A DNA stretch of 64,000 bases from Deltaproteobacteria bacterium (GTDB lineage Bacteria > Bacillota > Clostridia > Acetivibrionales > UBA4821). Made by a program: the position numbers and the translations under genes. Under the pieces are notes generated by a model. The model worked only from the letters and a program-made list of their open reading frames with translations. It was not told where the DNA came from and did no database searches. The stretch is taken from positions 29,543-93,542 of the forward strand of contig JBLMYQ010000002.1 of NCBI GenBank assembly GCA_050258375.1, read 5' to 3'. Each line of letters starts with the position of its first letter. Positions within the stretch are counted from its first letter, which is position 1. Shown here piece by piece: positions 3,073 through 57,266 of the stretch.

Positions 3073-4364
3073 TAGCGGTCTCCTTCTATCTTTTCCAGTA
3101 GTATTTTGGAATCCAGATCAAAAAAGCCTACTATCTTTTTAAAAGCAATTACCTCCAGTATTAATATATGATACAGTCTTTCATAAACAACAAATTTTTC
3201 ACCTTCAAATCCCGAACAGGCAAAAGTAAGCAAATAAATTCCGGAGTTTAAATTTAATTTATGTTTAAAAGTGACTAGCATGATATCACCTTTATCAAAA
3301 TTGCCGGTATAAATATCCTGGAACATGGTATTTGTGCCAGTAACATCTTGTCCTCCTACATCCCGAATTGTATATGTAAAAGTTGGATTTTCTATATAAT
3401 CATTGAAAACAACTTTCATTCTAAAGGTATAATAACTACCAAAAATCAATTTCTGCGTTGGTTCTCTATTCTCGTCAAACACCCCAAAATCAATAATATT
3501 AGCTTTATTATTACCATATATCTCGCAAACCGAGCTTATTTCAAATGCCTTTGCATCATCCGCATTTTTTAAACTTTGAATCCTTTTATTTTTTTGATTT
3601 TCATATTCTTTTCCTGAATGCACTTTAGTTCCCACAATCAGCTTTTTATATAAATCTACAACTTCTTTAGGCAATCCCTGCATAATAATATTTCCTTCTT
3701 TAAACAATATGGCTGATTGACAATATTTTATGACTGCTTCAATATCATGCGTAACAAAAATTATTGTTTTTCCTTCCTGCTGCAAGCTTCTGAATTTAGC
3801 AAAGCATTTTGCCTGGAAGCCTATATCACCCACGCTTAAAGCTTCATCAACAATTAATATATCCGGATTAACACTTATCGCAACTGCGAAAGCTAACCTT
3901 GCAAACATACCACTTGAATACATTTTTACACGTTGGTAAATAAAATCGCCTATATCAGCAAAATCAATTATATCCTGCATCTTTGCGTCCATTTCTTCTT
4001 TGCTGTACCCCATCAGCGTCCCATTCAAATATATATTTTCTATTCCTGTATATTCAGGATTAAAGCCTGCTCCGAGTTCAAGAAGCGCTGACACTTTACC
4101 ATTTACCGTTACCTCCCCGGAAGTTGGTGTAAGTATACCCGTAATTATCTTAAGAAGTGTTGATTTTCCAGAGCCATTTTTGCCTATAATACCAACAGTT
4201 TCACCTTTTTTTACCTCAAAGCTTATACCGTTTAAGGCATAAAATTCTTTATGGTATCTCTTCCTGAATGGATGAAATGATTCTTTTAATCTATCAACCG
4301 GTCTGTCATAAAGCCTATATAGCTTTATCAGGTTTTCAACTTTTATTGCTATTTCTTCATTCAT
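3072..4364 (-). CDS. wzt: polysaccharide/teichoic-acid export ABC transporter ATP-binding protein (Wzt/TagH-like) with ~180-aa C-terminal extension
   Basis: Walker A GKNGSGKST, signature YSSGMFARLAF, Walker B ILIVDEALSVGD; C-terminal extra domain as in O-antigen-binding Wzt; RBS GGAGGGAA. Confidence 0.85.
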   Translation of the reverse strand: MNEEIAIKVENLIKLYRLYDRPVDRLKESFHPFRKRYHKEFYALNGISFEVKKGETVGIIGKNGSGKSTLLKIITGILTPTSGEVTVNGKVSALLELGAGFNPEYTGIENIYLNGTLMGYSKEEMDAKMQDIIDFADIGDFIYQRVKMYSSGMFARLAFAVAISVNPDILIVDEALSVGDIGFQAKCFAKFRSLQQEGKTIIFVTHDIEAVIKYCQSAILFKEGNIIMQGLPKEVVDLYKKLIVGTKVHSGKEYENQKNKRIQSLKNADDAKAFEISSVCEIYGNNKANIIDFGVFDENREPTQKLIFGSYYTFRMKVVFNDYIENPTFTYTIRDVGGQDVTGTNTMFQDIYTGNFDKGDIMLVTFKHKLNLNSGIYLLTFACSGFEGEKFVVYERLYHILILEVIAFKKIVGFFDLDSKILLEKIEGDR

Positions 4365-4379
4365 TTATCTTTCCCTCCG

Positions 4380-5189
4380 TCATATCACGTCTGCAAAATG
4401 AGGCTTGAGCCTTCTGAAAAGCAGTGCCCCAACAATTAAAACAATTAAGGTTTCAACCCAGAAGTATATAGAGAGATTCGGATATTCCCAAAAGCCTATT
4501 TCATATATGAAGCAATTCCTATAGCCTTCTACAATATAATAGAATGGATTGAGCTTAAAGATTAGCTGATAATTTTCCGGAACGGTTTTAAATGACCAGA
4601 ATATCGGCGTAAGCCAAAAACCAAACTGCAAAAAAATCCCTACTATTTGCCCCAAATCTCTAAGAAATACAATTAATGAAGATGTAATCCATGATAGCCC
4701 TAAAAGAAGGATTATGGTTGCAAACAAGTAATAAATTATCTGCAAATTATACCAACTAGGCAAATAACCATAAATGCCAAACATTACAAATATTAATGCT
4801 ATAAAGAAAAGATGTATAAAGAGTGCTGATATTATCTTTATTATTGGTAAAACGCTTACCCTGAAAACAATTTTCTTAACCAGGTAGCTGTTATCAAGCA
4901 CTGAATTTGTAGCATTCATCAGTGCCTCCGAAAAGAAAAACCACGGAATAATACCGCAAATAAGCCAAAGGATAAACGGGATATCTCCTATAGGTGCAGA
5001 TTTAAATCCAACTTGAAAAACAAACCAAAAAATAAGTATAGAAATAATCGGTTGAACAAAAGCCCATATTATTCCTAGATAGGACCCTAGATATTTGACC
5101 TGTAAATCATTTTTTGCCAAATCAAATATTAGATTTCTGCTAGCTGCTATATCTCTTAGAAAATCTATAAAAAGCCTTGCATATCTCAT
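4380..5189 (-). CDS. wzm: ABC-2 type polysaccharide export permease (Wzm/TagG-like)
   Basis: 269 aa, 6 predicted TM helices, adjacent to wzt. Confidence 0.8.
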   Translation of the reverse strand: MRYARLFIDFLRDIAASRNLIFDLAKNDLQVKYLGSYLGIIWAFVQPIISILIFWFVFQVGFKSAPIGDIPFILWLICGIIPWFFFSEALMNATNSVLDNSYLVKKIVFRVSVLPIIKIISALFIHLFFIALIFVMFGIYGYLPSWYNLQIIYYLFATIILLLGLSWITSSLIVFLRDLGQIVGIFLQFGFWLTPIFWSFKTVPENYQLIFKLNPFYYIVEGYRNCFIYEIGFWEYPNLSIYFWVETLIVLIVGALLFRRLKPHFADVI

Positions 5190-19597: not shown

Positions 19598-20875
19598 TTA
19601 TTTACCTGCACTGCTTTCCCTAATTACTTGATAAACACTTTTTAAATTATAATAATCCGCAAGTGCGGTTAATGCCCTCGTAGTTGCCATCATATCCGCC
19701 TCTCCTCCTCGGATATGGCTAAAGCTTCCATCCGAGAGCTGAAATGATATTATAAAATCAATCATATTTTTATCTTTTTCTTTTATCCATTCTTCAGAGG
19801 TTGGATCAATCCCTATTGCAACCAATCCCTGAACTACTGCCGAAGCTGTGTCAGGGTTTTCCTGACCGAATATCTCGAACCCACCGGAGGAGCTTTGTCT
19901 GGATTTGATAAACTCAACAGCCTTTTTAACCTCTTTATCATTTTTATTTTTCCCCAGGGCACTAAACCCAACAAGAGCCATACCAGTCATATCCATGTCA
20001 GATTTTGCTCCTGTGAATATTCCGAATCCACCATCAGAATTCTGCCTGGAAATCAGCCAGTCATAAGCCCTTTCGGAATTTGATATCCTTTCACCTGCAC
20101 AATACAAGGATATTATCCCCCAAATGTGTGAATTAAGAAGCTTCTCTCCTTTTCCCTGTATTGTATCTGCAAACTTGCCGGAAGCCGTTTGACTTTTTAT
20201 CACTGCTTCTACAAAATTTATGCCGGCAAAGCTTTTCGGATTTTTCCCCACCGATAAAATTCCGATTATTGTTCTCTGATAATCAGTTGCCCTCTCCGCA
20301 TCAAAATCATTGCCTTCTTTTATTTCTTTCTCTTTCCAATCCAATGCCTTTTTATAGTTATCCGGCTCTGAGCTTCTCTCAATCGAATACATTGCCGCAG
20401 CAGGCCAATCAAGGTATCCTTTAAAATCATTTTTCAAAAAATATGACTTTATATAATTTCCGGTGAGCTTCATAGAATTTAAAGTACGTTCACGTATTAT
20501 TGAATTTCCAGTATTTCTAAAATTAATTTCATTATTCTTTTGGGCTGAAAAAAAATTAGTCTTATGTTGGTTCCTTGTAACTTCAACTTGATTTTTATTA
20601 CTTACTTTTTCTTCATTCTCTTTTATGGAAGCATTGTTAAATTGCTTCTCCTGAATTTCATCCGTTTTAGATAAAGGTACTATCTCAGTCCTTTTTATTA
20701 CTGGTTTTGAGGCTGAAGCTTTGTCCAAAGCCTTTGAGGAAACAAAAATCTGTGTTTTTTTATTTGCCTGATCAGCCATGCCCTTAGTAAAGACAGCAAT
20801 ACCTATTAACATAAAGCTAGCTATTATTCCGATTAAAATACCTTTTTTCTTAATATCCCTCACTCCTTTGGCCAT
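19598..20875 (-). CDS. membrane-anchored protein with prenyltransferase-like alpha/alpha-toroid repeats (transcobalamin alpha-domain-like)
   Basis: N-terminal TM anchor, low-complexity linker, then repeats SQTASGKFAD / SRQNSDGGFG / SRQSSSGGFE typical of squalene-cyclase/prenyltransferase repeat fold. Confidence 0.6.
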   Translation of the reverse strand: MAKGVRDIKKKGILIGIIASFMLIGIAVFTKGMADQANKKTQIFVSSKALDKASASKPVIKRTEIVPLSKTDEIQEKQFNNASIKENEEKVSNKNQVEVTRNQHKTNFFSAQKNNEINFRNTGNSIIRERTLNSMKLTGNYIKSYFLKNDFKGYLDWPAAAMYSIERSSEPDNYKKALDWKEKEIKEGNDFDAERATDYQRTIIGILSVGKNPKSFAGINFVEAVIKSQTASGKFADTIQGKGEKLLNSHIWGIISLYCAGERISNSERAYDWLISRQNSDGGFGIFTGAKSDMDMTGMALVGFSALGKNKNDKEVKKAVEFIKSRQSSSGGFEIFGQENPDTASAVVQGLVAIGIDPTSEEWIKEKDKNMIDFIISFQLSDGSFSHIRGGEADMMATTRALTALADYYNLKSVYQVIRESSAGK

Positions 20876-21500
20876 ATTTTGCTCTCACTTGGGTAACCCT
20901 GTTTTCCTCCTCTATTTTTACATCAATGCTCATTTTCCTTTGAAACCTTGTTACTATATTCACAAACTCAGCACCAAACAACCATGCAAAAATTATGTTT
21001 CCGGCCCCATGCAAGGTATCAAACCAAAAGCTTGAGGCACATAATATCAGATAGCCCTTTAAGCTGTGCGGAGAAGTATATGAGTACCAAGTCCAGAAAT
21101 TCATTATCCATCCAAAAAGGAATCCCCATACTCCACAAAAAATCGCAAAAGCTGGTTTATTAAAACCAATCTTGATTTTTCCAGCCAAGCCTGCCGTTAC
21201 TCCAGCAAATCCCCAGTCAATCATTTGCCAGGGAGTCCAGGGACCTTGTCCCAAAAAAAAGTTTGAAATTCCGGCAGAGAGAACTCCGGTAACAAATCCA
21301 GCCAGCGGTCCCATTGAATAGCCTGTAACAATTACTATAAACGTAGTTGGCTGAACATTAGGAATTGCTGCAAAAGGAATTCTTCCTAATGCCCCCAGCG
21401 CAGACATTATTGATATAAGCGCAATCTGCTTTGAGTTTATGTTTCTCTTTTCATAAATATATAGCCCAACGGCAATAAAAATAATTATTAGTATGGTCAT
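20850..21500 (-). CDS. ECF transporter S (substrate-capture) component, candidate cobalamin-specific (CbrT-like)
   Basis: 216 aa, 6 TM small integral membrane protein between EcfAA'/EcfT and B12-riboswitch context; RBS GGGGGTGA + ATG. Confidence 0.6.
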   Translation of the reverse strand: MTILIIIFIAVGLYIYEKRNINSKQIALISIMSALGALGRIPFAAIPNVQPTTFIVIVTGYSMGPLAGFVTGVLSAGISNFFLGQGPWTPWQMIDWGFAGVTAGLAGKIKIGFNKPAFAIFCGVWGFLFGWIMNFWTWYSYTSPHSLKGYLILCASSFWFDTLHGAGNIIFAWLFGAEFVNIVTRFQRKMSIDVKIEEENRVTQVRAKYGQRSEGY

Positions 21501-21545
21501 AACTCACCCCCTGCCCCCTCTCTTAAAATAGAGGGGAATATAACT
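21501..21545. repeat. TAACTCACCCCCTGCCCCCTCTC + CCCCTCT..AGAGGGG hairpin element between ecfA and S-component gene (includes its RBS/start)
   Basis: repeat family member; rc gives GGGGGTGAGTTATG start context. Confidence 0.5.
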
Positions 21546-23187
21546 TCCTTTTAAGACTCTGTACCCTTCTAATTCTTCCCTCACCCATACCTTTAAACAA
21601 TTTATTAACCTGTGAAGGAAAATACAGATTATTATTCAAAATCTCTTCCCTTGTCCCATCCGCTGCTATTTCTCCTTCATGCATAATAACAACCCTTTCG
21701 CAGTATTGCACTGAAAAATCCACATCATGGGTTACAAGGATAATTGCTGCTCCTCTTTTTTGCAAATCCAGAAGCATTTCTCCAAGAGCCTTTTTGTTTT
21801 TATAATCCATTCCACGGGTAGGCTCATCCAGAAGAATTATTCCTTGAAACATACACATTATACTTGCAAGCGCCACCCTTTGTTTTTGACCTGAGCTTAA
21901 ATCCCTGGGGTTCTTATCCTTAAATTTATCCAACCCAAGAACCTCCATAAGCCCATTTGTTTCGTCATTCCATTTCCTATTAAAATTCTTTAGAGTAAAT
22001 AAAACCTCATCCTTTACTGTATCGTTGAAAAGGTAATCATCCGGATTTTGTCCCAGATAAGAGATTCTTTGAGCCAGCTCATAAACACTCTTTCCTTCGT
22101 TGGAAACCCCAGCCGCCTCAATTGTTCCACTATCAGGCATTAACAGACCGTTGATATTTTTTAAAAGAGTCGTCTTTCCTGCTCCATTTTGACCAAGGAT
22201 TGCTATAAATTCTCCCTTTTTAACCTCAAGATTAATATCTTTTAAAGCATTCTTAAAATTATCATACGAAAAATTCAGCTTGCTGATTTTTACTGCTGTT
22301 TCCCTATGTACCTCAGTTCCACTTTTTAAATATTTCAAAGAAAGGGCTTGCAGATGATTTATCTCTGTTTCGGATAATCCCGCAAGGACTTTGTGCCCTT
22401 CCTCTACAGTGATTGGAATTTTTTCAAGATTAAATCCGAAAAATAATTTTGGAATAACCGGAACAAATTCAAATCCGGTTTTATCTGCCCACCCGCAGTA
22501 TTCGTCTGCTGCACCATCAAATACTATTCTGCCTCCATCCATAGCAATAACCCTATCAGCAAAATGAAGACATTTTTCAAGCTTTTGTTCGGCCATTATT
22601 ATAGTTTTATTACTGCGCTTTGCAACCTTTTTTATTGTATTCATCAACTCTTCCGATGATTTTGGATCTATCTGCGAAGTAGGCTCATCAAGAAGCAGTA
22701 CATCAGGATTCATTCCAAGTACCGAAGCAAGTGCAACCTTTTGTTTTTGACCGGAAGAAAGCATATTAATCTTTTTATCTGTAAGCCTTTGTATGCCAAC
22801 AGTGCGAATAACTTCAGCCATTTTCCCTTTAGCTTCATCCTTATTTATTCCCATATTCTCCATTGGCAGTAATATTTCTCTTTCTACAGTTGAGCAAACA
22901 AGCTGTTTTTCCGGGTCCTGAAAAAGCATTCCGACTTTAGGCGCAAGCGATTTTAAATTTTTCAACATATTTAAATCACCAACAAATGCGCTGCCTGATA
23001 TTCTGCCTCCATAAAATGCTGGAACCAATCCCGCCAACAGCTTCAATAATGTTGATTTCCCACATCCTGAATGTCCGACCAGCAGAATCATTTCTCCCCG
23101 CCTTATTCTCAAATTAATATTTTCCAAAGCAGGCAAAAAAGAGTCCGGATAAAAATATGTTAGGTTTTCTATTTTAAAGTTTTGCAT
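21523..23187 (-). CDS. ecfA: energy-coupling factor transporter ATPase, fused tandem EcfA-EcfA' (CbiO-like)
   Basis: Two ABC domains each with Walker A (GHSGCGKST; GQNGAGKTT), LSGGQ-type signatures (LSSGQKQ twice), Walker B LLLDEPT / ILLDEPT. Confidence 0.85.
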   Translation of the reverse strand: MQNFKIENLTYFYPDSFLPALENINLRIRRGEMILLVGHSGCGKSTLLKLLAGLVPAFYGGRISGSAFVGDLNMLKNLKSLAPKVGMLFQDPEKQLVCSTVEREILLPMENMGINKDEAKGKMAEVIRTVGIQRLTDKKINMLSSGQKQKVALASVLGMNPDVLLLDEPTSQIDPKSSEELMNTIKKVAKRSNKTIIMAEQKLEKCLHFADRVIAMDGGRIVFDGAADEYCGWADKTGFEFVPVIPKLFFGFNLEKIPITVEEGHKVLAGLSETEINHLQALSLKYLKSGTEVHRETAVKISKLNFSYDNFKNALKDINLEVKKGEFIAILGQNGAGKTTLLKNINGLLMPDSGTIEAAGVSNEGKSVYELAQRISYLGQNPDDYLFNDTVKDEVLFTLKNFNRKWNDETNGLMEVLGLDKFKDKNPRDLSSGQKQRVALASIMCMFQGIILLDEPTRGMDYKNKKALGEMLLDLQKRGAAIILVTHDVDFSVQYCERVVIMHEGEIAADGTREEILNNNLYFPSQVNKLFKGMGEGRIRRVQSLKRKLYSPLF

Positions 23188-24089
23188 TTATCAGACCTCC
23201 ATGAAAGTATCGCCGGCATGATAACCAATAGCGGTAAAAAGCCAACTACTATCCATACCCAAGCTGCATTATTGATAGTAAAACCAAGCCTTGGGAAGAA
23301 CTTAAAAGCTAAAAAGCCTCCTGAATAATTAAAAATTGTAATAAAAACAACCATTATTCCAGCAAATATAAGCCAAAAATCTTTTAATCCAAAGCTTTCA
23401 TCATAGTGCCTTCTGCGTTTTGCAGCTCCATAGCCTTTTGATTCAAGCGCCTCCGCTGTCTGCATGGAACCTTCGAGACTCGAAAAAAGCAATATCTTTA
23501 TAAACGGCCACCCGGCTTTAATACGTTTAAATATATTTTTCGAATCAAGCTGTACTCCTCTTGTCATTTGAACCTCAGCAATCCTTTTGGTACTTTCCAT
23601 CATGGAAGGAATCATTTTTGCGGTAAGTGCTGCAGTAACAGCCGAACGTGGAGCTGCAAATGAAATTAAATTAAAAATTTTATCAGCTTCAACGCAAATA
23701 TTTAAAAATACAAATAACAAAACAGTGTTAACAAGCTTAAGCATTAATACCAAAGCGAATATCAGACATTCCAATGTGATTTTTATATCCCCAAAGACAG
23801 GAACCTCGGTCAGCCTGAATAATACAGTTGCGCCTCTACTATTTACGATTGGATTTATCAGCATTATTGGTATCCCAATGAAGGCAGCAAGAATCAATGC
23901 ATTCTTAATAGCTTTTCTATCAGCAGACATTATCAGCAAGCAGATAGAACCAAAGAAAATTATCTGCACAGCCGGATTATTTGTAACTGAAACAAAAATA
24001 AGCATACAGGTCAAATAAATTATTAATGCCAATGTATTAAATGATTTGAAAAAGTCCTTCACTGTTTTCCTCCAATACTCCTTACACAA
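23169..24089 (-). CDS. ecfT: energy-coupling factor transporter transmembrane component EcfT (CbiQ family); start uncertain
   Basis: Polytopic membrane protein overlapping ecfA; CbiQ-like length and hydropathy. Confidence 0.7.
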   Translation of the reverse strand: MCKEYWRKTVKDFFKSFNTLALIIYLTCMLIFVSVTNNPAVQIIFFGSICLLIMSADRKAIKNALILAAFIGIPIMLINPIVNSRGATVLFRLTEVPVFGDIKITLECLIFALVLMLKLVNTVLLFVFLNICVEADKIFNLISFAAPRSAVTAALTAKMIPSMMESTKRIAEVQMTRGVQLDSKNIFKRIKAGWPFIKILLFSSLEGSMQTAEALESKGYGAAKRRRHYDESFGLKDFWLIFAGIMVVFITIFNYSGGFLAFKFFPRLGFTINNAAWVWIVVGFLPLLVIMPAILSWRSDKCKTLK

Positions 24090-25012
24090 GGAAGCCTTTG
24101 AAGCTTTCCTTTATAGGCAATTCCATAATAGCCTTCTATACTTTCCGGTTTTGAGAAAATTAAATCTGTCAAAGCTTCTATTCCTTTATGCTCCAAAGAG
24201 GTAACAACCCATACAGGGGCAGTATCCCCCAGAGAATTTGCTATCGCAAATACTATTCCGGTTTTGGAATCGCATACATCTTCAACTGAACCTGCGCAAT
24301 TCAAAAGGGATATTTCTCCTTTCCCAAATCTTACAGGCATTCCCCTGCTCTCACCGTCAGAAAGCAAAGCTGTAACGCTCTTATTCTTTATCAGATTTGC
24401 GTATTCTCCAACTAATATGCAAGGATAACCAGCAGCTACTTTAATTTTTTCAGGCAAAGGTTCTTCAATAATATTTTGCGCTTTTAAATTAGCAAGGCTT
24501 TGTTTAATCTTTAATGCCTCATTCTTATTCCCTTCAGAATAATAGATTCTCGTTCCCTTTGTCATGCCTTTAAAGCCATTGACAAAAGGCTCAGGATACG
24601 CACCTATTATTGCCGGAATAAAGCTGTTTCCATTCCACTGGTGATAATCCCATAAAAGCTTATCACCCTTCTTTAGATGATAAGCTTTGGATGAACAATT
24701 TGAAGCAATACCATTTACATAGTAAAACCAATCCTTTCCCGACTCGCTTTCAATCGAGGAGCTTAATCCATTTATTGCCTTAACAAAACCTCCGGTAGAT
24801 GCTTCAACTTCAAGATTCTTTTCAAGTATATCCAAAACAGTTTCTCCGGCTTCAACCAAAACAGTTTTCTCAAATAGGATTTCTGAACCAAACTCCCTGC
24901 TTACAATAAGCTCAACCTCAAAGGGTCTGTCCATTCCTTCATTATTATTCACAGAACATCCTGATAATAATAACAGCGATATTATAAGTATGTATTTTAA
25001 TTTTTCAAGCAT
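24059..25012 (-). CDS. lipoprotein with N-terminal DUF4430 (transcobalamin-like beta domain) plus second domain
   Basis: Lipobox LLLLSGCS; DUF4430-like VELIVSREFG...GDKLLWDYH; first gene after riboswitch; ORF-track start is TTG, ATG (MLEKLK) preceded by GGGAGTGAAGG. Confidence 0.65.
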   Translation of the reverse strand: MLEKLKYILIISLLLLSGCSVNNNEGMDRPFEVELIVSREFGSEILFEKTVLVEAGETVLDILEKNLEVEASTGGFVKAINGLSSSIESESGKDWFYYVNGIASNCSSKAYHLKKGDKLLWDYHQWNGNSFIPAIIGAYPEPFVNGFKGMTKGTRIYYSEGNKNEALKIKQSLANLKAQNIIEEPLPEKIKVAAGYPCILVGEYANLIKNKSVTALLSDGESRGMPVRFGKGEISLLNCAGSVEDVCDSKTGIVFAIANSLGDTAPVWVVTSLEHKGIEALTDLIFSKPESIEGYYGIAYKGKLQRLPCVRSIGGKQ

Positions 25013-25038
25013 TCTCAACCTTCACTCCCAACTTATCT

Positions 25039-25094: not shown

Positions 25095-25262
25095 CACCGA
25101 AAAGGATTTCCAGCACTGTTTCATCCACTCAGATATCCTGGCTCAGGTTCATTCTTCTCCTTCCCTTCCCGGTTCAATCCAGTGGGTATCTAAGGAGTCG
25201 TCACCATTACAGTAGCGGGGGCTGCGACGGATTCTAACCGTCTTTCCTGAAAAGCGTGGACA
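25095..25262 (-). promoter_or_regulatory. cobalamin (AdoCbl) riboswitch
   Basis: Minus-strand sequence GGTTAGAATCCGTCGCAGCCCCCGCTACTGTAATGGTGACGACTCC...ACCCACTGG...GGGAAGGGAAGG matches B12-element core (GGTnAnAATCC, GCnGnCCCGC..CTGTAA, B12 box CCACTG, GGGAAGG). Confidence 0.8.
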
Positions 25263-25913: not shown

Positions 25914-26133
25914 GCTTTATTCCTCCATTAATAATTATTTGTACCTTCAGTATAATAATATTTCCATATATTTCCTGTCAAGCTTTTATTGTAAAATTTT
26001 GGTAATTATTTTTTTGGTGCTTAATCATTCTTTTAACAATTAATATAATATCCACTAAGTATAATACATAAAATTACGGTCAATAATTACTATAAGAAAA
26101 TAATTCACATACAGTTTAGGGGTGATTGTACAA

Positions 26134-26838
26134 ATGAAATTCATTAATTTTTTAAAACTGAATAATCTTGTTACAATAAAGAAGATATTTCATATGAAAC
26201 ATTTATTGATCTTATCTATACTCGTTGTTTCATATATAATTCTTTCAGGATATATATATTCTGAAAAGATAAGTGAAGACCTTGCCAAAAATGTTGTCAG
26301 GCTGCATGTAATTGCAAACAGCGATTCAAAACATGACCAGCAAATAAAATTAATGGTTAGGGATTCAATACTAAAATATATGGAAGAAAACTCTAAAGGT
26401 ATTAAGTCTGCAGATGAAGCTAAAAACTTCATTTGTAAGAACCTTTTAAATATAGAGAATATTGCTTGTACTGCCTTAAAATCATATGGCTCGGATTATA
26501 GCGCAAAAGCCTATTTTGGCAAATTTGTTTTTCCAACAAAGGTTTACGGCGATGTTACTTTACCATCAGGAGAATATCAATCTCTTAGAGTTGTTCTTGG
26601 GAATGGTATAGGAAAGAACTGGTGGTGTGTAATGTTTCCTCCTTTATGTTTTGTGGATGCATCAACCGGGGTGCTTCCAGATGAATCAAAGCTTCAGTTG
26701 AAAAGCGTTCTCACAGAAGAGGAGTACAAAATTGCTCTGGGGAATGCGAAGAATACTTGCCCTGATATAAAAATAAAATTTAAGATAGTAGAATTGCTGC
26801 AGCAGTCAAAGTTTATGTTGGCAAAGGGAAAAAGATGA
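26134..26838 (+). CDS. spoIIR: stage II sporulation protein R
   Basis: VVRLHVIANSDS...YGDVTLPSGEYQSLRVVLGNGIGKNWWCVMFPPLCF SpoIIR signature; signal-anchor; ATG 26134 preceded by GGGGTG. Confidence 0.8.
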   Translation: MKFINFLKLNNLVTIKKIFHMKHLLILSILVVSYIILSGYIYSEKISEDLAKNVVRLHVIANSDSKHDQQIKLMVRDSILKYMEENSKGIKSADEAKNFICKNLLNIENIACTALKSYGSDYSAKAYFGKFVFPTKVYGDVTLPSGEYQSLRVVLGNGIGKNWWCVMFPPLCFVDASTGVLPDESKLQLKSVLTEEEYKIALGNAKNTCPDIKIKFKIVELLQQSKFMLAKGKR

Positions 26839-34770: not shown

Positions 34771-36897
34771 TTAATTTCTCCTAATATCCGAAATTAAATA
34801 TTGCTCACCTTTTTTAATAAAGCTTACTTTTACACCTTTGGCAGGACCTGATGTGATTTTTATGATTCCATCTTTTGTATTATTAGTATCAACTGTCCAC
34901 TCCTGTCCAAAAGGATTTTGAATAAGGTGCATTTCTTTTGCTTTACTTATTAATAATTTATTAACAACCAGTTTTTCTGCTTCTGAATTTTCCCCTTTAC
35001 TTATGTTATACACAAATTGTACAAGCGTTTCATAAGCCGAAGGTATTATTTCAAGCTTCTTTTGTACATATTTATCTCCCTGCCTAACCCATGTATCCTT
35101 GAAATATCTATATGGACCTTTATTATCATTATAAAACGCTCTACTTTTTAAGTCTCTGTATATTCCTTCTCTGGTAAACTCAGAAACTCCATCTTCGGAG
35201 AATGTGAGCTTTCCCCCGTAATACTTCCATCCTGTCACCCTATTCAATTGCCAAACCCTATTCCAATGATTATTCTTTAGCTTAAATAAAATGACTTCAT
35301 TACCATAGGCTTGCGGCTCTCTATCAAAAACTGTCAACATTTCAATTTCATTATTCAATCCGTGCAAAATTTTAACTTGATTTGGAATACAGTTAACCTC
35401 CGCCGAAACAGACAGTTCCCTCCAAGGATTCATTGTTTGATGATTTAATTTACCATTGTACAACCAGTATATATCTAATCCTTTTCCTTCCTCAAAAGTT
35501 CCTAATCCTTTATAAGCCAGAAATATTACTTCAGGAAGAGTACCATCATTATTTGCTGGTTTAAATAGTGAAGAGTTCTCTATATCAGCATCCTTCGATA
35601 ACTTTTCAGCTAGTTTATCAGCATTACTTTGAACTTTTGCATATAAACTAGATAACTTTTTATTTATTATCTTCTCTCTAATTAAAGTAGAAATATCAAG
35701 GTAGGAGCGTGTAACAGCCAAAACTTCACCAAGCTTATTATCATTTCCGCTGCTACATGCATTGATAAGTATTTTTTGTGATTCGGAAAAACTTTCTTGG
35801 GCTTTTTTAAAGTCTTCCAGTTCTTGATATGTTTGCCCTAACCCCAAATACACTTTTGCTAAATTTTTTTGAGTCTGTTGATCGGTTGCAGCACTCATTT
35901 TCTTTATCAATGAATCAAATATATTTTTTGCCTCTTTATACTTACCAAGTGAATTAAAGGCAAATCCTTTTACCAAATAAAACTGATTCTCCGAAGGATA
36001 AGATATATTATATTGTGTACTTTTTTCTAAGCCTTTCTGGATGGATTGTAATGCTTGCTCAGGTTTTCCCGCCTTAACCTGAGAATCAGCTAAATAGTAC
36101 CAAAGAACAGGGTCATTTGGATATTGTTCAACCTTTTGGCTATAATATTTAGCCACCTTTTCAAAATAATATGGGTATACCTCGGTCGCCGGATAAAATG
36201 TTGGTACAGGATTTTCATATTTTTCAACACTTATCAGTCTCCAATTTCTGTATACACCTACTTTAAAAGCTCCTTCTCCATCCTTTTCCCATATAGCCAA
36301 TTCAGCTATTCCGTCCACCCCATATTTCCCAGGCATATCTTCCATTTCAAGTTTGCTATAAGTAATGTCTAACGTCTTTAATAATCCTTCTTCTTGAACA
36401 ATTTTGCCTTCTTCGTATTTGCTGGGCTGCCAATAATACACTCCCAAAGCATTCCCAACTGTTTTGCCTATATTCCTTCCTAATATAATTTCAGGCACTC
36501 TACCTCCCGTAAAATCAACAAAACCTGCCCAGTCAAAGCCGCTTCCAATATCTTTGTCTTCCCACATCTTTTCCCACTTTCCATTATTTTGCTTTATGAT
36601 AGCCGCGCACGCTTGTACCGGATTCTCTCCCATCTGATATGTATATAATATTTCATCCAAGTCATCTCCATTAATGTCACCTTTCTGGACAGCCTTCGCA
36701 CCTTGAGGATTAGCAGGCACTGTAAGCTTTGCACCCTTGGGCAAAAACAGCTGCACTATTTTTGCAAGTCCATCATCAGCTTGATTGGTAGCTTCTGAAC
36801 TTGGAGGCTTGATTGTACTTGTTGGTGATGGAAGAGTATTACAGCCAGCAAATACAAACATGGATAATAGTACAACTACAATGATTTTATTTCTCAT
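34771..36897 (-). CDS. secreted lipoprotein with TPR-like repeats, function unknown
   Basis: Lipobox VFAGCN, TPR-like helices in middle third; ATG 36897 after AAGGGGAAG. Confidence 0.55.
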   Translation of the reverse strand: MRNKIIVVVLLSMFVFAGCNTLPSPTSTIKPPSSEATNQADDGLAKIVQLFLPKGAKLTVPANPQGAKAVQKGDINGDDLDEILYTYQMGENPVQACAAIIKQNNGKWEKMWEDKDIGSGFDWAGFVDFTGGRVPEIILGRNIGKTVGNALGVYYWQPSKYEEGKIVQEEGLLKTLDITYSKLEMEDMPGKYGVDGIAELAIWEKDGEGAFKVGVYRNWRLISVEKYENPVPTFYPATEVYPYYFEKVAKYYSQKVEQYPNDPVLWYYLADSQVKAGKPEQALQSIQKGLEKSTQYNISYPSENQFYLVKGFAFNSLGKYKEAKNIFDSLIKKMSAATDQQTQKNLAKVYLGLGQTYQELEDFKKAQESFSESQKILINACSSGNDNKLGEVLAVTRSYLDISTLIREKIINKKLSSLYAKVQSNADKLAEKLSKDADIENSSLFKPANNDGTLPEVIFLAYKGLGTFEEGKGLDIYWLYNGKLNHQTMNPWRELSVSAEVNCIPNQVKILHGLNNEIEMLTVFDREPQAYGNEVILFKLKNNHWNRVWQLNRVTGWKYYGGKLTFSEDGVSEFTREGIYRDLKSRAFYNDNKGPYRYFKDTWVRQGDKYVQKKLEIIPSAYETLVQFVYNISKGENSEAEKLVVNKLLISKAKEMHLIQNPFGQEWTVDTNNTKDGIIKITSGPAKGVKVSFIKKGEQYLISDIRRN

Positions 36898-36994
36898 TTT
36901 TCTTCCCCTTTCAATTATTTTCTTTCCCATTTAAATTTTAATTTTAAAAGAAAGAAAAAGGGTTATAGAAAGATTAAAAATAGTTACAAAAAAG

Positions 36995-42785: not shown

Positions 42786-43280
42786 ATGGCAAAAACAATA
42801 GTAGGTGTTTTTGAATATCACAAGGATGCAGAAAAGGCAGCTAGAAAAGTCAAGGAGGAAGGACTTAAGACCTCAGACATATCAATAATCACAAGACAAG
42901 GCTCAGACAATGATTATAACGACAATACCACGGGGCAGGATTATACCATGAAAAATGATAATATTTCAGACGGAGTGGTAACAGGAGGCGTTCTCGGAGG
43001 ACTTGCAGGGCTTCTTATAGGTGCTGGCACAATGGTCATTCCAGGTATAGGAATAATTGCAGCTGCAGGACCGATAACAGGCTTGATTTCAGGTGCTATT
43101 ACAGGTGGAATAGTAGGAGGTCTTGTAGATTTGGGAATACCTGAAGATGAAAGCAGAGAATATGAAAATGATGTAAAAGAAGGAAAAGTTGTATGGAGCA
43201 TGCGAACCGATTCTTCATATGTTGATAAAATAAAATCAATTTTAATAGATTGCGGTGCATACGACATCCAAGCTTATTAA
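42786..43280 (+). CDS. general stress protein 17M (YflT/DUF1269)-like with glycine-zipper C-terminal half
   Basis: N-terminal VGVFEYHKDAEKAARKVKEEGLKTSDISII pattern; GxxxG-rich hydrophobic segment. Confidence 0.5.
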   Translation: MAKTIVGVFEYHKDAEKAARKVKEEGLKTSDISIITRQGSDNDYNDNTTGQDYTMKNDNISDGVVTGGVLGGLAGLLIGAGTMVIPGIGIIAAAGPITGLISGAITGGIVGGLVDLGIPEDESREYENDVKEGKVVWSMRTDSSYVDKIKSILIDCGAYDIQAY

Positions 43281-43299
43281 ATCATCCACAATAAACAGG

Positions 43300-43800
43300 A
43301 TTATTTTCCCTCGGATATAATACTGTTTAAGGGACAGAATAATATCACAAGGGTTCATAGTGGTTGAGCCAAGAGTAACTCAGGGTCTGCTGGGCTCTGT
43401 TTTATTCGGTCAAAGGTCTGTATTCGGTCTACGTGGCTGTTTACCGGCCGGCGAGCAGAGCATTATGTGTCTCCCAAGGCTTTGTATATGCAGCATTTGC
43501 TGTGTATGCCAGGTCGAAAGGGATGTATAATGTTCGAGCTAAGATTGTCGTTAGTTCCGCAGGTTAATTTTGCTGTAGCCCTGCATAACCGTTTGGTTAT
43601 GGCTAACTCAGATTAACTGGAGGTTTTTTGCAGCCGGCTTGCCGGTTGCACTTAGCTTCTAAGGTATTCTCGACAGTCGAGTAAAGGTTGATATGGGTTT
43701 TGATATGCTCTTATACAGCCGGAAGGTTGTATGGGGGTATGAAGAGATTCATATTGGCTGTAGCGTAGATCACTATGGGCTCTTATTTAATTTTTGCTTC
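43300..43800. other. GC-rich (~50% vs ~35% background) ORF-free structured element of unknown identity
   Basis: No ORF >=60 aa in any frame; many short perfect hairpins (CATAACC-GTTT-GGTTATG; GCAGCCGGC/GCCGGTTGC; CTCGA-CAG-TCGAG); no match to tmRNA, RNase P, 6S, group I/II intron cores. Confidence 0.4.
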
Positions 43801-43956
43801 TTATAATAATTGTAATAATATTCAAAAAAGTGTATAATTAAGCTATAAACTTTTTTAAATATTTATTATTGGGAGCAAAAAGATGGTCGAAAAATTAGAA
43901 GACCTTCTATTCAAGGTATTTTTAAATATAATCAAATAAAGATAAAAAATGAAATT

Positions 43957-44214
43957 TTGACAGAAAAAATAAAAGCTTTAGAAGAACAATTAACTCAATC
44001 TGAAAATAGCAATAAACAGCTAAGACATGAGTTGACGCAATCTGAGATTACTAATAAGCAGCTAAGCAATGAGTTGTCACAATCTGAAAACACCAATAAG
44101 CAATTAGTGGATGAAAATGCAGAATTACATACTCTTTCAGAAAAGGATGGTCTTACTAATCTTTGTAACAAGAAAAACTTTGAAATCTCTTTAAATAAAA
44201 AAATAGCAAGGTAG
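43957..44214 (+). pseudogene. remnant of coiled-coil + GGDEF (diguanylate cyclase) gene, truncated after DGLTNLCNKKNFEISL
   Basis: TTG-initiated 85-aa ORF with 11-aa repeats (ELTQSEITNKQL) ending in the first GGDEF motif (DxLTxLxNRR-like) then stop; downstream frames are fragmentary. Confidence 0.4.
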
Positions 44215-44421
44215 AATGCCTTGAGGATAGAAATTTGATAAAAAGCTTTGAAGGAAAAATCGAAGAACAAATCTCTCCTTATATACGGGATACTGCAGAT
44301 AAAAAATCACTTTATTGCGCAAAAAATAAAGAAGGCAAGGGTACAGTAGTAGCAATCAACGGAGATTTATCATCGTTTTGTAATACTCTTAATCCTGACC
44401 ACACCGGAAGATAATAAATTT

Positions 44422-51940: not shown

Positions 51941-52540
51941 CTATATTTCTCTTCTTCCCTCTATAGCCTTCAAAAGAGTAACCTCATCTGTATACTCGAG
52001 ATTGCCGCCAACCGGGATTCCGTGGGCAATACGTGTTGCTTTGATTCCCAAAGGCTTAATAATCTTGGATATATACATTGCTGTTGCTTCTCCTTCAACA
52101 TTCGGATTTGTCGCAAGTATAACCTCTTTTACTTCTTCATCCTTCAATCTCTCAAGAAGCTCTTTTATTTTTATATCGTTTGGCCCAATTCCATCCATTG
52201 GAGATATAACCCCTTGAAGCACATGATATACACCCTTGAATTCACGTGTTCTTTCCATTGCAACAACATCCTTAGGGTCTTCAACCACACATATTATGCT
52301 CCTATCTCTCTTATCACTGCTGCAAACAGGACATAATTCCGAATCGCTGATATTACTGCAAACAGAACAATATTTAACCTTTGATCTGGCATCAATTATG
52401 GAATTGGCAAGTCCCTCAGCTTCGGAACTCGGCGAATTCAGCACATAGAATGCAAGTCTTTGTGCTGTTTTATGACCTATACCAGGTAACTTTTCAAATT
52501 CTTCTATAAGCCTTGCAATAGGTGCTGAATATAATTCCAT
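51941..52540 (-). CDS. recR: recombination protein RecR
   Basis: C4 zinc finger [16 protein letters not shown], Toprim domain, 199 aa. Confidence 0.9.
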
Positions 52541-52596
52541 AAAGTCCTCCGAAAAGATTTAGTTCAATGTGCTGCTAAGTAAAATCTTGATAACCC

Positions 52597-52660
52597 CTCT
52601 CTTGATAACCCCTCTTTTGAAAAGAGAGGGGCAGGGGTGAGTTACACTTTACACTAAAAC
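52597..52660. repeat. composite: CCCCTCTTTTGAAAAGAGAGGGG hairpin + GGGGCAGGGGTGAGTTA repeat + TTACACTTTACAC heptamers (recR-ybaB intergenic)
   Basis: same units as at 21501..21545 and 29027..29045 (rc) and as the heptamer arrays. Confidence 0.55.
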
Positions 52661-52995
52661 AGCCCCGGTAGTCCCCCGCCTGTAATTCTCTTCATTTCTG
52701 TAGAAGAAAGCTCATCTGCTTTCCTGATTGCTTCATTTACAGCCGCAAGTACTAAGTCTTGAAGCATTTCCACATCATCAGGGTCAACAACTTCAGGCTT
52801 TATCTTTATTTCTTTTAAATCCTTCTTCCCATTTGCTATAACAGTAACTGCACCGCCGCCTGCACTAGCTTCAACAGTTTTTTCCTCAAGCTCTTCCTGC
52901 ATCTTCTGCATATCTTTTTGCATTTTCTCTGCCTGCTTCATTAAATTTCCCATATTCATGCCCCCAAAGCCTCCTGGGAATCCACCTTTAGCCAT
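52654..52995 (-). CDS. ybaB: YbaB/EbfC nucleoid-associated protein
   Basis: 113 aa, conserved position between dnaX and recR, coiled-coil + GGGLPGLF tail. Confidence 0.85.
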
Positions 52996-53101
52996 AAAAA
53001 TCCCTCCATAAAAATTATTACTGCTGTATTATAACATATTCATTTAATATATTTAAACCATCTTTAAATAATAACACTTTATCACTTGTAGATTTTTAAA
53101 A

Positions 53102-54715
53102 TTATTCCTCTATAACATTAATAGGTACATTAAACTTTTTTGCCAGTTCCTCAACCTTGGTATCTTCTTTTACTTTTTGCGCTTGTTTCCGAGCTTTAAT
53201 CTCATCACTTATGCACTTTATGTTATAATCTATACCGGTAACTTTACTTACCACACTTTTTAAAAGCGCAGTGTTTTCACTTTTCATAATAACCGTTTTT
53301 CTAAACTCTGAAGAATCTTTGTCTAATACCACTGCAATTGTTTTTTCATCGATTTTTTTTGCTTTTGTTCCAATTAGATTTGCATATAAAACCATCTTTC
53401 CGCTGCTCTTTAAAGCTGATATTACTTCCTCCCATTTTTCAAGATAATCTTCCGCACTCATATTGTTTTGTACTGATGCTTTATCCTGAACCTTTGGCTG
53501 ATCAATCGGTTTTACTTCCTGAGTACGGATGTGCTTAGATGCTGCTGCCTCCCTTTCCGGCTGCAGCTTGGTTTTTGATAAGGCCTCTTCCAATCTTAGC
53601 AATCTATCCTCAAAAGCATTATCAGCTCCGGTTGTAATATCCTTGCATAACTTTAACATACCAACCTCTATAACAACCCGCGGCATAGCAGCCCATTTCA
53701 GCGAAGCCTCCATCTCTGAAAGATATTCAACAACCTCTACCAATCTTTGATATTCCATTTTTGAAGATAACTCTTTAAGCTTTAAAATATTCTTTGTTGC
53801 CAAATAAGTATCTATACCTTCTCCTGCCGTTTTGTATATCATTATATCTCTAAAAACTCTAACCAAAACCGATATAAACTGTGTCAAATCCTTACCACTC
53901 TTTGCAAGCTGGTCGATAATCTGAATACACAGCGAAAAATCTTTTTCAGCAATCGCCTCTGCTATATCAAAAAGAAGCTGCTCTCTTGGAAGTCCTATTA
54001 CATCAGAAACTAATTCTCTTGTTATTTTACTGTTTCCATCCATACACTGATCAAGTATGCTTATTGCATCTCTTAAAGCTCCATCTGCAGACCTTGCAAT
54101 AAGCTCCAATGCGTCTTCATCTGCCGCTGCTTTATTCTCTTTAACAATTTGATTAAGCCTTCCTTCCATATCGCCAGTATTTATTTGCTTAAACTCAAAT
54201 CTCTGGCAGCGGGATAGGATGGTTGCAGGAAGCTTATGCGATTCGGTGGTCGCCAATATGAAAACAACATGTTTGGGCGGTTCTTCAAGAATCTTAAGCA
54301 AAGCATTGAAAGCTCCTATAGAAAGCATATGCACTTCATCTATAATATAAACCCTGAATTTAGCAACAGATGGCATATAAAAAACTTCGTCCCTTATAAG
54401 CCTTATATCTTCAACACTATTATTTGAAGCTGCATCAATTTCAACGACATCCATTATGTTTCCAGATATAATTCCACTGCAAATCTCACACGCATTGCAT
54501 GGATTACCATCAACAGAATTAAGACAATTTACAGCCCTCGAAAGAATCTTGGCTGTACTTGTCTTTCCAGTTCCCCTGCCTCCGGAAAAAAGATAAGCAT
54601 GTGCAATTCTGTTATTTAAAATTTGATTTTTTAATACTTTTACTATATTGGGCTGACCAACAATCTCATCAAACATCATCGGTCGCCATTTCCTGTATAA
54701 AGCAACGTACGACAT
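53102..54715 (-). CDS. dnaX: DNA polymerase III subunits gamma/tau
   Basis: AAA+ Walker A GGRGTGKTS, zinc module CxxCxxC, DEVHM; ATG 54715 after GAGGGTGA. Confidence 0.9.
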   Translation of the reverse strand: MSYVALYRKWRPMMFDEIVGQPNIVKVLKNQILNNRIAHAYLFSGGRGTGKTSTAKILSRAVNCLNSVDGNPCNACEICSGIISGNIMDVVEIDAASNNSVEDIRLIRDEVFYMPSVAKFRVYIIDEVHMLSIGAFNALLKILEEPPKHVVFILATTESHKLPATILSRCQRFEFKQINTGDMEGRLNQIVKENKAAADEDALELIARSADGALRDAISILDQCMDGNSKITRELVSDVIGLPREQLLFDIAEAIAEKDFSLCIQIIDQLAKSGKDLTQFISVLVRVFRDIMIYKTAGEGIDTYLATKNILKLKELSSKMEYQRLVEVVEYLSEMEASLKWAAMPRVVIEVGMLKLCKDITTGADNAFEDRLLRLEEALSKTKLQPEREAAASKHIRTQEVKPIDQPKVQDKASVQNNMSAEDYLEKWEEVISALKSSGKMVLYANLIGTKAKKIDEKTIAVVLDKDSSEFRKTVIMKSENTALLKSVVSKVTGIDYNIKCISDEIKARKQAQKVKEDTKVEELAKKFNVPINVIEE

Positions 54716-54796
54716 AAAAATCACCCTCGAAGCAAAAAATAATAGGATAGAAAAACATCTACCCTATTATAACACAAGTATTAATTTTTTCTATAA

Positions 54797-56981: not shown

Positions 56982-57266
56982 TTATCAAAATAATATGGCT
57001 GTGCACCTTTCTTCGACATGCTTCATACAAGCGGCACTCATACTGTTAGCTCAAATCAAGTACCCTCGCGGCACACAAGAGTGACCACTTACCGCTGCTT
57101 TCTTCCGAATCTGACGGGGTTCATAGTTTCCTGTTGCGCAAGACCTGACTCTCATCACCACTTTTTATGCTCCAAACCCTACACGAAACAGCCTTCAAAA
57201 GGAATTAAGCCCTGCTATAGCGGATTGCAGGTACAAGGCACCGCTACCTCCCCGCCTAGCACAGCC
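56982..57266 (-). ncRNA. ffs: signal recognition particle RNA, long (Bacillus-type, with Alu domain)
   Basis: Minus strand GGCTGTGCTAGGCGGGGAGGTAGCGGTGCCTTGTACCTGCAATCCGC... and domain IV GTCAGATTCGGAAGAAAGCAGCGGTAAG closely match B. subtilis scRNA; 5'/3' ends pair (GGCTGTGC/GCACAGCC); followed by hairpin GGCAGAGCGATGGATGATTGCTCTGCC. Confidence 0.85.

Follow-up and report, generated by a model that had tools for sequence, protein, structure and literature searches.

Bacterial structured RNAs that exceed 300 nucleotides (nt) and whose function is open are few, comprising OLE, GOLLD, ROOL, raiA, HEARO and a handful more, and each of them has opened new biology, from membrane ribonucleoproteins (RNPs) to RNA nanocages and guide RNAs. 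RNA-level players in spore development, in turn, are barely known. The only forespore-specific examples that our literature search returned are CsfG (136 nt) and Bvs196 (294 nt), two published independent RNAs that are driven by SigF/SigG and are both small. Here, we describe a predicted RNA gene in a 64-kb (64,000-nt) stretch of contig JBLMYQ010000002.1, which we refer to throughout as the window. Our comparisons show that the element at window positions 43349-43785 (+), about 437 nt from one strand of its closing helix P1 to the other, is a predicted RNA gene with a conserved multi-arm fold that is independent of its neighbours. The explanation we prefer, which we consider about evenly poised between right and wrong, is that of a stand-alone gene for a trans-acting structured non-coding RNA (ncRNA) of about 440 nt, belonging to a family outside Rfam, probably made in the forespore and serving, as a guess, as a scaffold.

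The first-pass annotation of this region had described an unassigned element rich in G and C, dense in hairpins and free of reading frames of 60 amino acids (aa) or more. The element is real and folds far beyond chance. The GC content is 45.2% over 43340-43790 (42.5-46% in 200-nt windows), compared with 35.6% for the whole window and 16-37% in the immediate flanks; the reported enrichment is confirmed, at a value nearer 45% than the roughly 50% originally given. Its longest open reading frames (ORFs) reach 56, 49, 44 and 37 aa, and stop codons occur throughout the six frames. The minimum free energy (MFE) of 43349-43785 (+) is -190.9 kcal/mol; dinucleotide shuffles give -133.1 +/- 5.7, which places the element at z = -10.1, while the complementary strand of 43320-43810 reaches a z of only -2.3. 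Additionally, 34 of the 127 consensus pairs in the window copy (27%) are G-U pairs, and since a G-U pair would be C-A in the complement, the fold is that of a + strand RNA. We delimit the element as 43349 to about 43800, preceded by a predicted promoter at 43313-43341, and the transcript probably spans from about 43347-43349 to about 43800 (+). Self-BLAST of the element revealed no second copy in the 64-kb window, and a covariance model of arm H4 and the central junction (R1) found no second copies in 23 sources.

These properties leave the notion of a decayed protein-coding gene with a negligible probability. The element does adjoin another decayed gene (43957-44414), but its six frames are all interrupted with no ORF reaching 60 aa, its substitutions are compensatory within helices and lack codon periodicity, and it is conserved more than the intact neighbouring genes.

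The gene upstream of the element (42786-43280, +) encodes a YflT-domain membrane and stress protein. In metagenomic contigs with a 78-84% identical YflT, the gene order is ilvD, SLH protein, yflT, a gap of 580-740 nt, CDP-alcohol phosphatidyltransferase or GGDEF, nadC, nadB and nadA, and the element occupies the gap downstream of yflT in every such contig, a location shared by six related metagenomic species. Using L numbers for the loci and contigs compared, it lies at 5584-6058 in L010/L011/L034, at 5667-6156 in L007, at 5525-6012 in L005/L021 and at an equivalent position in L013-L016 (for example, 4508-4996 in L013). The syntenic homologs (L005, L007, L010, L013, L019 and the cut copies in L025 and L027) are 75-92% identical, as opposed to 62-82% for the adjacent yflT, and the nucleotide identity of the element is higher than that of yflT in each comparison (0.92/0.82, 0.84/0.78, 0.85/0.78, 0.87/0.80 and 0.75/0.62). 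The edges of conservation are sharp, starting at AAGGGTTCATAGTGG and ending at CACTATGGGCTCTT, and both RNA ends are invariant within a clade. Moreover, L019, whose YflT is 66% identical, carries two complete copies (747-1227 and 4490-4974) that are about 95% identical and each have a promoter sequence. These copies bracket a dtxR-like repressor-feoA-feoB cassette inserted between yflT and the CDP-alcohol transferase gene, and, the gene copies aside, the duplication shows neither terminal repeats nor a target duplication. As a separate observation, the Logan short-read contigs L001, L002, L006, L008, L009 and L012, from several samples, all end inside the RNA gene, two of them at window position 43475. 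The likely cause is that related strains occurring together have identical blocks of 31 nt or more, at which the assembly graph branches; this explains the ends better than the multi-copy repeats that we also considered, and such ends are in keeping with a locus whose most conserved DNA is the element.

We found a second, more distant group of homologs by scanning metagenomes with an 18-mer, ATGTTCGAGCTAAGATTG, taken from the most conserved block of the element. Five of the 15 loci returned were true (two duplicates of known loci, L022, the partial L025 and L027), and the other ten were chance matches in coding DNA. L022 is a contig with 20% GC in which the RNA is recognisable along its whole length. 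Further copies came to light through the gene next to it, which encodes a TraG-P-loop/DUF87 ATPase that is common in human-gut metagenomes and carries the label Clostridia. In this lineage of 22-24% GC, the layout is recF, gyrB, the RNA on the opposite strand, a TraC-like gene, the ATPase and, further on, gyrA; examples are L041 (3722-4093, -) and L051-L055 (for instance L051, 1930-2248, -). These AT-rich copies measure 315-375 nt and are without sub-arms H5a and H5b, and the L051 type is also without most of H2 and H3. Conservation of the element, which the first-pass annotation had left to be checked, extends over two Clostridia lineages.

The same evidence bears on two further candidates of that annotation, namely the remnant of a miniature inverted-repeat transposable element (MITE) or insertion sequence (IS) end and a fragment of horizontally acquired DNA. 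Under either, the hairpins would be inverted repeats at the DNA level, and the raised GC content relative to the flanks, the placement of the L019 copies around the dtxR-feoAB cassette and the TraC-like and TraG-P-loop genes next to the gut-lineage copies would all find a place. We consider such a relic extremely improbable. The element is single-copy in the window and at the other loci examined, it sits at the same syntenic site in six species while being conserved more than the flanking core gene, and its duplication in L019 carries the promoter with no terminal repeats or target duplication. The supposed inverted repeat is a G-U-rich RNA helix: a quarter of the pairs are G-U, the two strands differ strongly in folding z-score and compensatory changes keep the pairing. 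Finally, a distant-mode blastn search of phage and plasmid collections gave only a 27-nt chance match, and pattern scans of viral contigs gave zero matches or chance matches in coding DNA.

Comparison of the homologs provides the main evidence for a conserved fold. In an alignment of eight main-clade sequences (A2), RNAalifold predicts 159 pairs and finds compensatory double changes at 25 of these; in an alignment of 11 sequences from both lineages (A6), it predicts 127 pairs, of which 57 show compensatory changes. Each major helix holds several covarying pairs. In A6, 96.6% of cells form standard pairs, as compared with 37-44% when the 3' partners are slid by 1-3 columns; likewise, pairs with double changes number 57 against 8-14, and the covariation score is 0.42 against 0.07-0.11. 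On four of five measures, not one of 500 column shuffles reached the observed value, and 12 of 500 did so on the fifth (further pair types). In addition, the single-sequence MFE fold of L022 recovers the same architecture unaided (z = -7.9 for the sense and -3.3 for the antisense strand). A novel structured ncRNA, the candidate that the first-pass annotation had listed first, is thus the one borne out, given a fold conserved through compensatory changes, a predicted promoter and terminator, and no match in Rfam 15. Of the outcomes that would have counted against the original call, an Rfam match, a decayed protein gene and a lack of conservation were each checked, and none came up.

The 127-pair consensus of A6 defines the anatomy given below, all on the + strand. 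The closing helix P1 joins AAGGGTTCATAGTGGTT (43349-43365) with GATCACTATGGGCTCTT (43768-43784); all 17 pairs form in 11 of 11 sequences, and double changes between lineages affect six of the 17, with G-C pairs of the main clade turning into A-U in the AT-rich lineage. A 2-bp helix (43368-9 with 43763-4) follows. Inside P1, five arms (H2-H6) fold around a central junction. The first, H2 (43373-43407), is a hairpin whose helix is kept, with five of seven pairs covarying, and is reduced in L051; the hairpin H3 (43409-43452) has double changes at nine of 14 pairs and is missing from L051-type copies. We considered the H2 hairpin at 43381-43399 as the end of yflT or as an internal terminator and rejected both: the helix is conserved but the U-run is not, and the terminator-like call rests on a TTTTATT that follows the arm in the window copy only. 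H4 (43458-43535) has a lower stem of 16 bp and an upper stem of 14 bp, separated by a 4x4 internal loop (CCAA/GAAA); its helices are 98.9% and 97.2% paired, ten of its pairs have double changes and the arm forms independently in the L022 fold. The most conserved block of the element, ATGTATAATGTTCGAGCTAAGATTG (43523-43547), runs from the 3' strand of H4 through the central junction into the start of H5. Within it lies the invariant junction block, UUCGAGCUAAGAUU in the window, with TTCGAG.TAAGATT unchanged across both lineages, and the CUAAG of the junction, opposite CGAG(U/C), bears what we take to be a likeness to a UAA/GAN-type tertiary motif.

H5 (43538-43682) is a multibranch domain built on a long-range basal helix (43538-43558 with 43663-43682) in which nine of 16 pairs show double changes. 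Its sub-arms H5a (43559-43584) and H5b (43586-43599) are confined to the main clade and show little covariation, and H5c (43618-43661) has double changes at four of 15 pairs. H6 (43689-43756) is a long hairpin, with 13 double-changed pairs, capped by a GNRA tetraloop that reads GGAA in the window (43721-43724) and GGAA, GAAA, GUAA or GCGA in every copy. The core common to the lineages consists of P1, H4, the junction block UUCGAG.UAAGAUU, H5 with H5c, and H6 with its GNRA tetraloop; H2/H3 and H5a/H5b are lineage-specific additions. Two sequence motifs that might have hinted at a function did not hold up, since a GGAGG in H5c, considered as a Shine-Dalgarno (SD) or anti-SD mimic, is not kept in the AT-rich lineage, and a TATAAT within H4, considered as a 6S-like promoter mimic, is not conserved.

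The individual pairings proposed from the window copy alone fare differently in this light. All three stem-loops that had been named are present in the sequence, with unequal functional support. The stem GCAGCCGGC/GCCGGTTGC is the tip of H5c, a supported arm, and CATAACC/GGTTATG corresponds to H5b, a weakly supported arm specific to the main clade. The local hairpin CTCGA-CAG-TCGAG is probably not a functional pairing, having no covariation support and being lost in L019; CGACAGTC instead pairs over a long range with GATTGTCG in helix H5, with compensatory changes in other species. Similarly, one half of the proposed inverted termini, CATAGTG/CACTATG, is the core of the 17-bp P1, while the other half, GAGCC/GGCTC, is no conserved pair, and GGGCTCTT pairs with AAGGGTTC in its place.

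The fold also appears to contain an internal repeat. A covariance sub-model of H4 and the junction (103 positions) matches H6 and the 3' tail along its full length with zero non-canonical pairs, at window 43682-43785 (33.7 bits) as well as in L007, L041 and L051. The two segments, 43454-43560 and 43682-43785, are alike in having a 16-bp stem, a 4x4 internal loop and a 14-bp stem followed by GAGCUAAGAU or GUAGCGUAGAU. The match points to a probable origin of the RNA in the duplication of a module about 100 nt long.

None of the known families accounts for this architecture. At gathering thresholds, the 4227 models of Rfam 15, which include RNase P, transfer-messenger RNA (tmRNA), 6S, signal recognition particle (SRP) RNA, OLE (which we take to be RF01071), ROOL, GOLLD, raiA, HEARO, group I and II introns, T-box and riboswitches, matched the whole window only at an SRP RNA and a cobalamin riboswitch, both located elsewhere. 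Relaxing the threshold to E <= 10 over 43100-44000 brought up only snoRNA and miRNA noise, either outside the element or below 25 bits, and at E <= 5 there was no match within the element at L016, L019, L022, L025 or L027. The earlier judgement by eye that the element resembles none of tmRNA, RNase P, 6S, SRP, T-box and group II cores is thereby upheld. ARAGORN found no tRNA or tmRNA in the window, no IscB/TnpB, reverse transcriptase or intron ORF, of the kind that would accompany an OMEGA guide RNA, a retron msr-msd or a group II intron, lies within 5 kb on either side at any locus examined, and the element does not have CsfG/ylbH-type features, being 437 nt long with no CU-rich loop motif. 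Our literature searches likewise returned no described RNA of this kind and only the analogues CsfG, Bvs196, raiA and OLE. It is therefore very improbable that the RNA is a far-diverged member of an established large family (RNase P, tmRNA, 6S, OLE, ROOL/GOLLD, raiA, a group I/II intron remnant or an OMEGA/IscB-type guide RNA). The RNA does have a familiar look, with a closing helix that brings its two ends together, its many arms and its GNRA loop, and covariance models can miss very divergent lineages, but the permissive searches above covered the AT-rich form too, a guide RNA is at odds with the conservation of both RNA ends and the lack of a variable guide segment, and the decay or loss of the gene in sub-lineages, described below, is unlike an essential RNA such as RNase P RNA or tmRNA.

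The two ends of the RNA raise the question of whether it is an independent transcript. The 3' end is probably the U-rich tail TTATTTAATTTTTGCTTC (43785-43802, +), which is kept in L005, L007 and L013. In the main clade, P1 and this tail form a terminator-like end; in L010 and all AT-rich copies, a canonical terminator hairpin stands straight after P1. Because the P1 3' strand of the main clade runs directly into the U-run, and the next gene lies on the same strand 60-170 nt away in L005, L007, L013, copy b of L019, L010 and the window, the element could be read as a very large cis-acting leader, riboswitch-like or an attenuator, for the CDP-alcohol phosphatidyltransferase or GGDEF gene, with P1 and the U-tract as a regulated terminator. 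We judge this improbable. The downstream family is not constant, being a transferase or an unrelated GGDEF; copy a of L019 faces a convergent dtxR and the AT-rich copies face a convergent gyrB behind their strong canonical terminator. Furthermore, a separate promoter-like TATAAT stands between the RNA and the downstream gene, and the alignment contains no conserved alternative anti-terminator pairing. We found neither the constant co-oriented class of downstream genes nor the competing expression platform that mark riboswitches and leaders. A covarying structure on one strand, a predicted promoter of its own in 14 copies and a predicted terminator or U-tract are, on the other hand, the features of a stand-alone ncRNA gene, and the presence of the same RNA beside different genes in different lineages leads us to propose that it acts in trans.

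The promoter is the basis of the proposed link to sporulation. Upstream of P1 in the window lie a putative -35 box, GGATA (43313-43317, +), which is GAATA in other main-clade copies and GTATA in the AT-rich lineage, and a putative -10 box, GGACAGAATA (43332-43341, +), which ends 7 nt before P1 and is an exact GGnnAnAHTR; it also contains a weak extended SigA -10 (CAGAAT). All 14 copies examined have G(A/G/T)ATA, a spacer of exactly 14 nt and a 10-mer, (GG)nnAnA(A/C)TA, that ends 5-8 nt before P1 (5-6 nt in the AT-rich copies). The published SigF consensus consists of a -35 GYATA, an A/T-rich spacer of 14 bp and a -10 GGnnAnAHTR, with GAATA as a documented -35 variant. All nine main-clade copies match the seven specified positions of the SigF -10 and have GAATA or GGATA at the 14-nt spacing, and the GG and A.AATAA positions of the -10 are invariant in that clade. 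The AT-rich copies have a perfect GTATA and the 14-nt spacer, with a -10 that matches at five to seven of the seven specified positions. The full pattern GNATA-N14-GGNNANAHTR occurs twice in the 64-kb window, against 0.39 occurrences expected. The other match (36119-36147, +), probably due to chance, falls within a TPR-protein gene on the opposite strand (34771-36930, -).

Genomic context is consistent with such a promoter. The window contains spoIIR (26122-26838, +; Pfam Spore_II_R, E = 3.9e-49), from which we take the host to be an endospore former. It also contains a large SRP RNA gene (56999-57264, -) followed by dnaX, ybaB and recR (51941-54724, -), with prfA, sua5 and a low-molecular-weight phosphatase gene near, and GC skew is negative across its whole length. 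The SRP RNA-dnaX-ybaB-recR order is presumably the one found near the B. subtilis origin, giving a layout like that of origin-proximal Bacillus regions, and in the gut lineage the RNA is located between gyrB and gyrA. Early forespore genes need an origin-proximal position, as established for spoIIR in B. subtilis. Considering the SigF/SigG-type promoter, the spoIIR of the host and the location of the gene among B. subtilis origin-proximal genes in both lineages, we find it likely, at close to a coin's toss, that the RNA is expressed in the forespore.

Two side observations concern the upstream DNA. A 10-nt inverted repeat, AGGATTATAT-N8-ATATAATCCT, overlaps the -35 box in L007 (5650-5680) and at equivalent positions in L010 and L013; it is imperfect in the window (43299-43326) and absent in L005 and L019, and could be an operator or the terminator of yflT. 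In the AT-rich lineage, a conserved block, GTCAAGAAAAATCGTTCG.CA...TTCGAC, stands about 40 nt upstream of the RNA promoter (L022, about 815-845, -; L041, about 4290-4320, -; and the equivalent in L051), between the RNA gene and the divergent TraC-like operon, and may be a candidate site for binding of a regulator.

Several observations weigh against a conserved, forespore-made RNA. The promoter, the RNA ends and forespore expression are all predictions from sequence. Four of the five distinct AT-rich promoters are without one or both G's of the SigF -10, and evidence for endospore formation, in the form of spoIIR, pertains to the host of the window and not to the AT-rich gut lineage. The region upstream of the window's own spoIIR (26059-26087) reads GTATA-14-GGTCAATAAT, a partial match to the published SigF -10, which may not be the preference of this host. 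With regard to conservation, only about ten distinct sequences from two clades are at hand, and shared ancestry inflates the counts of covarying pairs; the slid-partner control retains this relatedness, yet its values separate cleanly from those observed. The RNA is also not universal among relatives. A scan of genome contigs with the YflT protein matched only Herbivorax sp. ANBcel31 and one unrelated sequence, and neither the yflT homolog of this Herbivorax (L003) nor that of L018 has the element next to it. In the gut, L037-L040 (L037, 3690-4010, -) retain the promoter, which reads as a perfect GTATA-14-GGTCATAATA, along with the terminator hairpin and the two strands of P1, with the interior of the RNA replaced by G/C-free, low-complexity AT repeats of similar length, so that this locus apparently is a decayed RNA gene, and L056-58 have no RNA. 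This decay and absence indicate that the RNA is dispensable in some gut lineages.

The promoter, moreover, can be read in a second way. The same trans-acting RNA gene might be transcribed by the housekeeping sigma factor in growing cells with no tie to sporulation, its likeness to a SigF/SigG promoter being a by-product of an AT-rich SigA-type promoter. The AT-rich copies offer TTGTAT-N17-TATAAT, a good SigA promoter, T(C/T)GAAT-N18-CA(G/A)AAT, with G at position -14, is a possible reading of the main-clade copies, and overlapping SigA and SigF promoters are documented in the literature for a B. subtilis case. The loss of GG from most AT-rich -10 boxes would also be explained. In the main clade, however, the SigA reading is weak, at four of six positions per hexamer, as opposed to the complete SigF -10 match with its exact spacer and invariant GG in every copy, and the rarity of the SigF-type pattern in the window points in the same direction. 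We regard transcription by SigA alone as possible, though rather unlikely.

Our working model retains the forespore-type promoter. Transcription would start at or within a few nt of the 17-bp P1 and end just after its 3' strand, at the U-tract or terminator, and the SigF/SigG-type promoter would drive the RNA in the developing spore. As to its role, we guess that it is a compact scaffold for proteins, forming an RNP in the manner of OLE or SRP, and that it might affect spore formation, dormancy or germination. Within a clade, neither strand of the long helices (P1, lower H4 and the base of H5c) varies, a sign of sequence-specific recognition; the conserved GNRA loop and junction point to tertiary folding; and the RNA has no conserved single-stranded seed of the kind that base-pairing small RNAs use, which makes that mode of action less likely. 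A ribozyme or an RNA-only assembly is a possible alternative to a scaffold. A bolder version, which we offer as speculative and unlikely, is a class of large ornate RNAs made of two duplicated hairpin modules of about 100 nt, specific to the forespore and compacted through GNRA docking and the UAA/GAN-like junction, which would work as an RNP, an RNA-only assembly or a ribozyme in dormancy or germination. If true, this would make it the first structured RNA of large size with a tie to the forespore programme.

Other features of the window deserve brief mention. The region downstream of the element had been described as a decayed coiled-coil/GGDEF gene. This is supported only in part: 43957-44414 (+) contains an 85-aa coiled-coil ORF with QSE(N/I)xNKQL repeats and a 59-aa ORF whose end, ...ADKKSLYCAKNKEGKG, resembles a GGDEF C-terminus, and L010 has an intact GGDEF gene of 357 aa at the equivalent position; tblastn, though, detected no similarity between the window region and the L010 gene, and what remains is a broken gene of uncertain origin. 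The cobalamin riboswitch mentioned above (25131-25248, -; 75 bits) precedes a DUF4430/CbiQ/ABC ATPase/ECF S-component transporter cluster (20850-25018). Regarding the host, NCBI records of metagenome-assembled genomes with an identical or 83% identical YflT (P0001 and P0003) are labelled Deltaproteobacteria and Ignavibacteriales. The locus has the hallmarks of Firmicutes (a large SRP RNA, SLH domains and spoIIR), and its nearest named relatives are Herbivorax, Petroclostridium and Ruminiclostridium; on the basis of these hallmarks, we propose that the bins are probably mislabelled.

For an RNA of this size, the evidence is unusually clean, with sharp boundaries, a conserved predicted promoter and terminator, the same fold at 36% and 22% GC, and 57 compensatory pairs. 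Should the forespore-type promoter prove real, it would connect spore development with a large folded RNA in a way open to direct testing. The 315-nt gut version, together with the apparent internal duplication, makes an attractive target for structure determination. We expect interest among RNA biologists to be high, and higher if the forespore link is confirmed.

In expression logic, the closest match to the RNA described here is with CsfG (the ylbH motif) and Bvs196 of Bacillus, which share a SigF/SigG-type promoter a few nt upstream, a rho-independent terminator and a stable conserved fold, although here forespore expression is deduced from the DNA alone. Neither is homologous to our RNA: CsfG is 136 nt long, has CU-rich loops and lies between ylbG and ylbH, and Bvs196, at 294 nt, is restricted to Bacillus. 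In general shape, the RNA is reminiscent of type A/B RNase P RNA, which is similar in size (about 350-450 nt) and likewise has several arms, GNRA loops and a closing P1 that brings its two ends together. It differs from RNase P RNA in matching no model, in having no P4-type conserved core that we could see, and in being dispensable in some sub-lineages.

OLE is a large, highly conserved, multi-arm ncRNA of anaerobic and Gram-positive Bacillota that acts in trans, is thought to form an RNP and has a biochemistry that is still open, all of which parallels what we propose for this RNA. OLE is tied to membrane proteins, and the neighbours here include membrane proteins as well (YflT-like and CDP-alcohol transferase). 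The two nevertheless differ in that there is no match in sequence or structure, the RNA here has about 440 nt against about 600, no oapA-type gene adjoins it and the distribution found so far is narrower. The raiA motif is about 200 nt long, which makes our RNA roughly twice its length. Like our RNA, raiA (ModT) is a structured ncRNA found in Bacillota that has a promoter and a terminator of its own, and it has been linked to sporulation phenotypes in Clostridia; it differs in architecture, its Rfam model does not match our RNA and it occurs in over 2,500 species, in contrast to the two lineages found here.

Finally, ROOL and GOLLD resemble this RNA as large ornate bacterial RNAs with many covarying helices, and they show that such RNAs can form RNA-only assemblies. 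The RNA of the window matches neither model, is chromosomal and is absent from the phage and viral collections we searched. ROOL and GOLLD, by comparison, are usually associated with phages and found near tRNAs. Taken together, these comparisons identify the RNA as new at the level of the family, while as a broad kind, that of large structured trans-acting bacterial ncRNAs, it joins OLE, raiA, ROOL and GOLLD.

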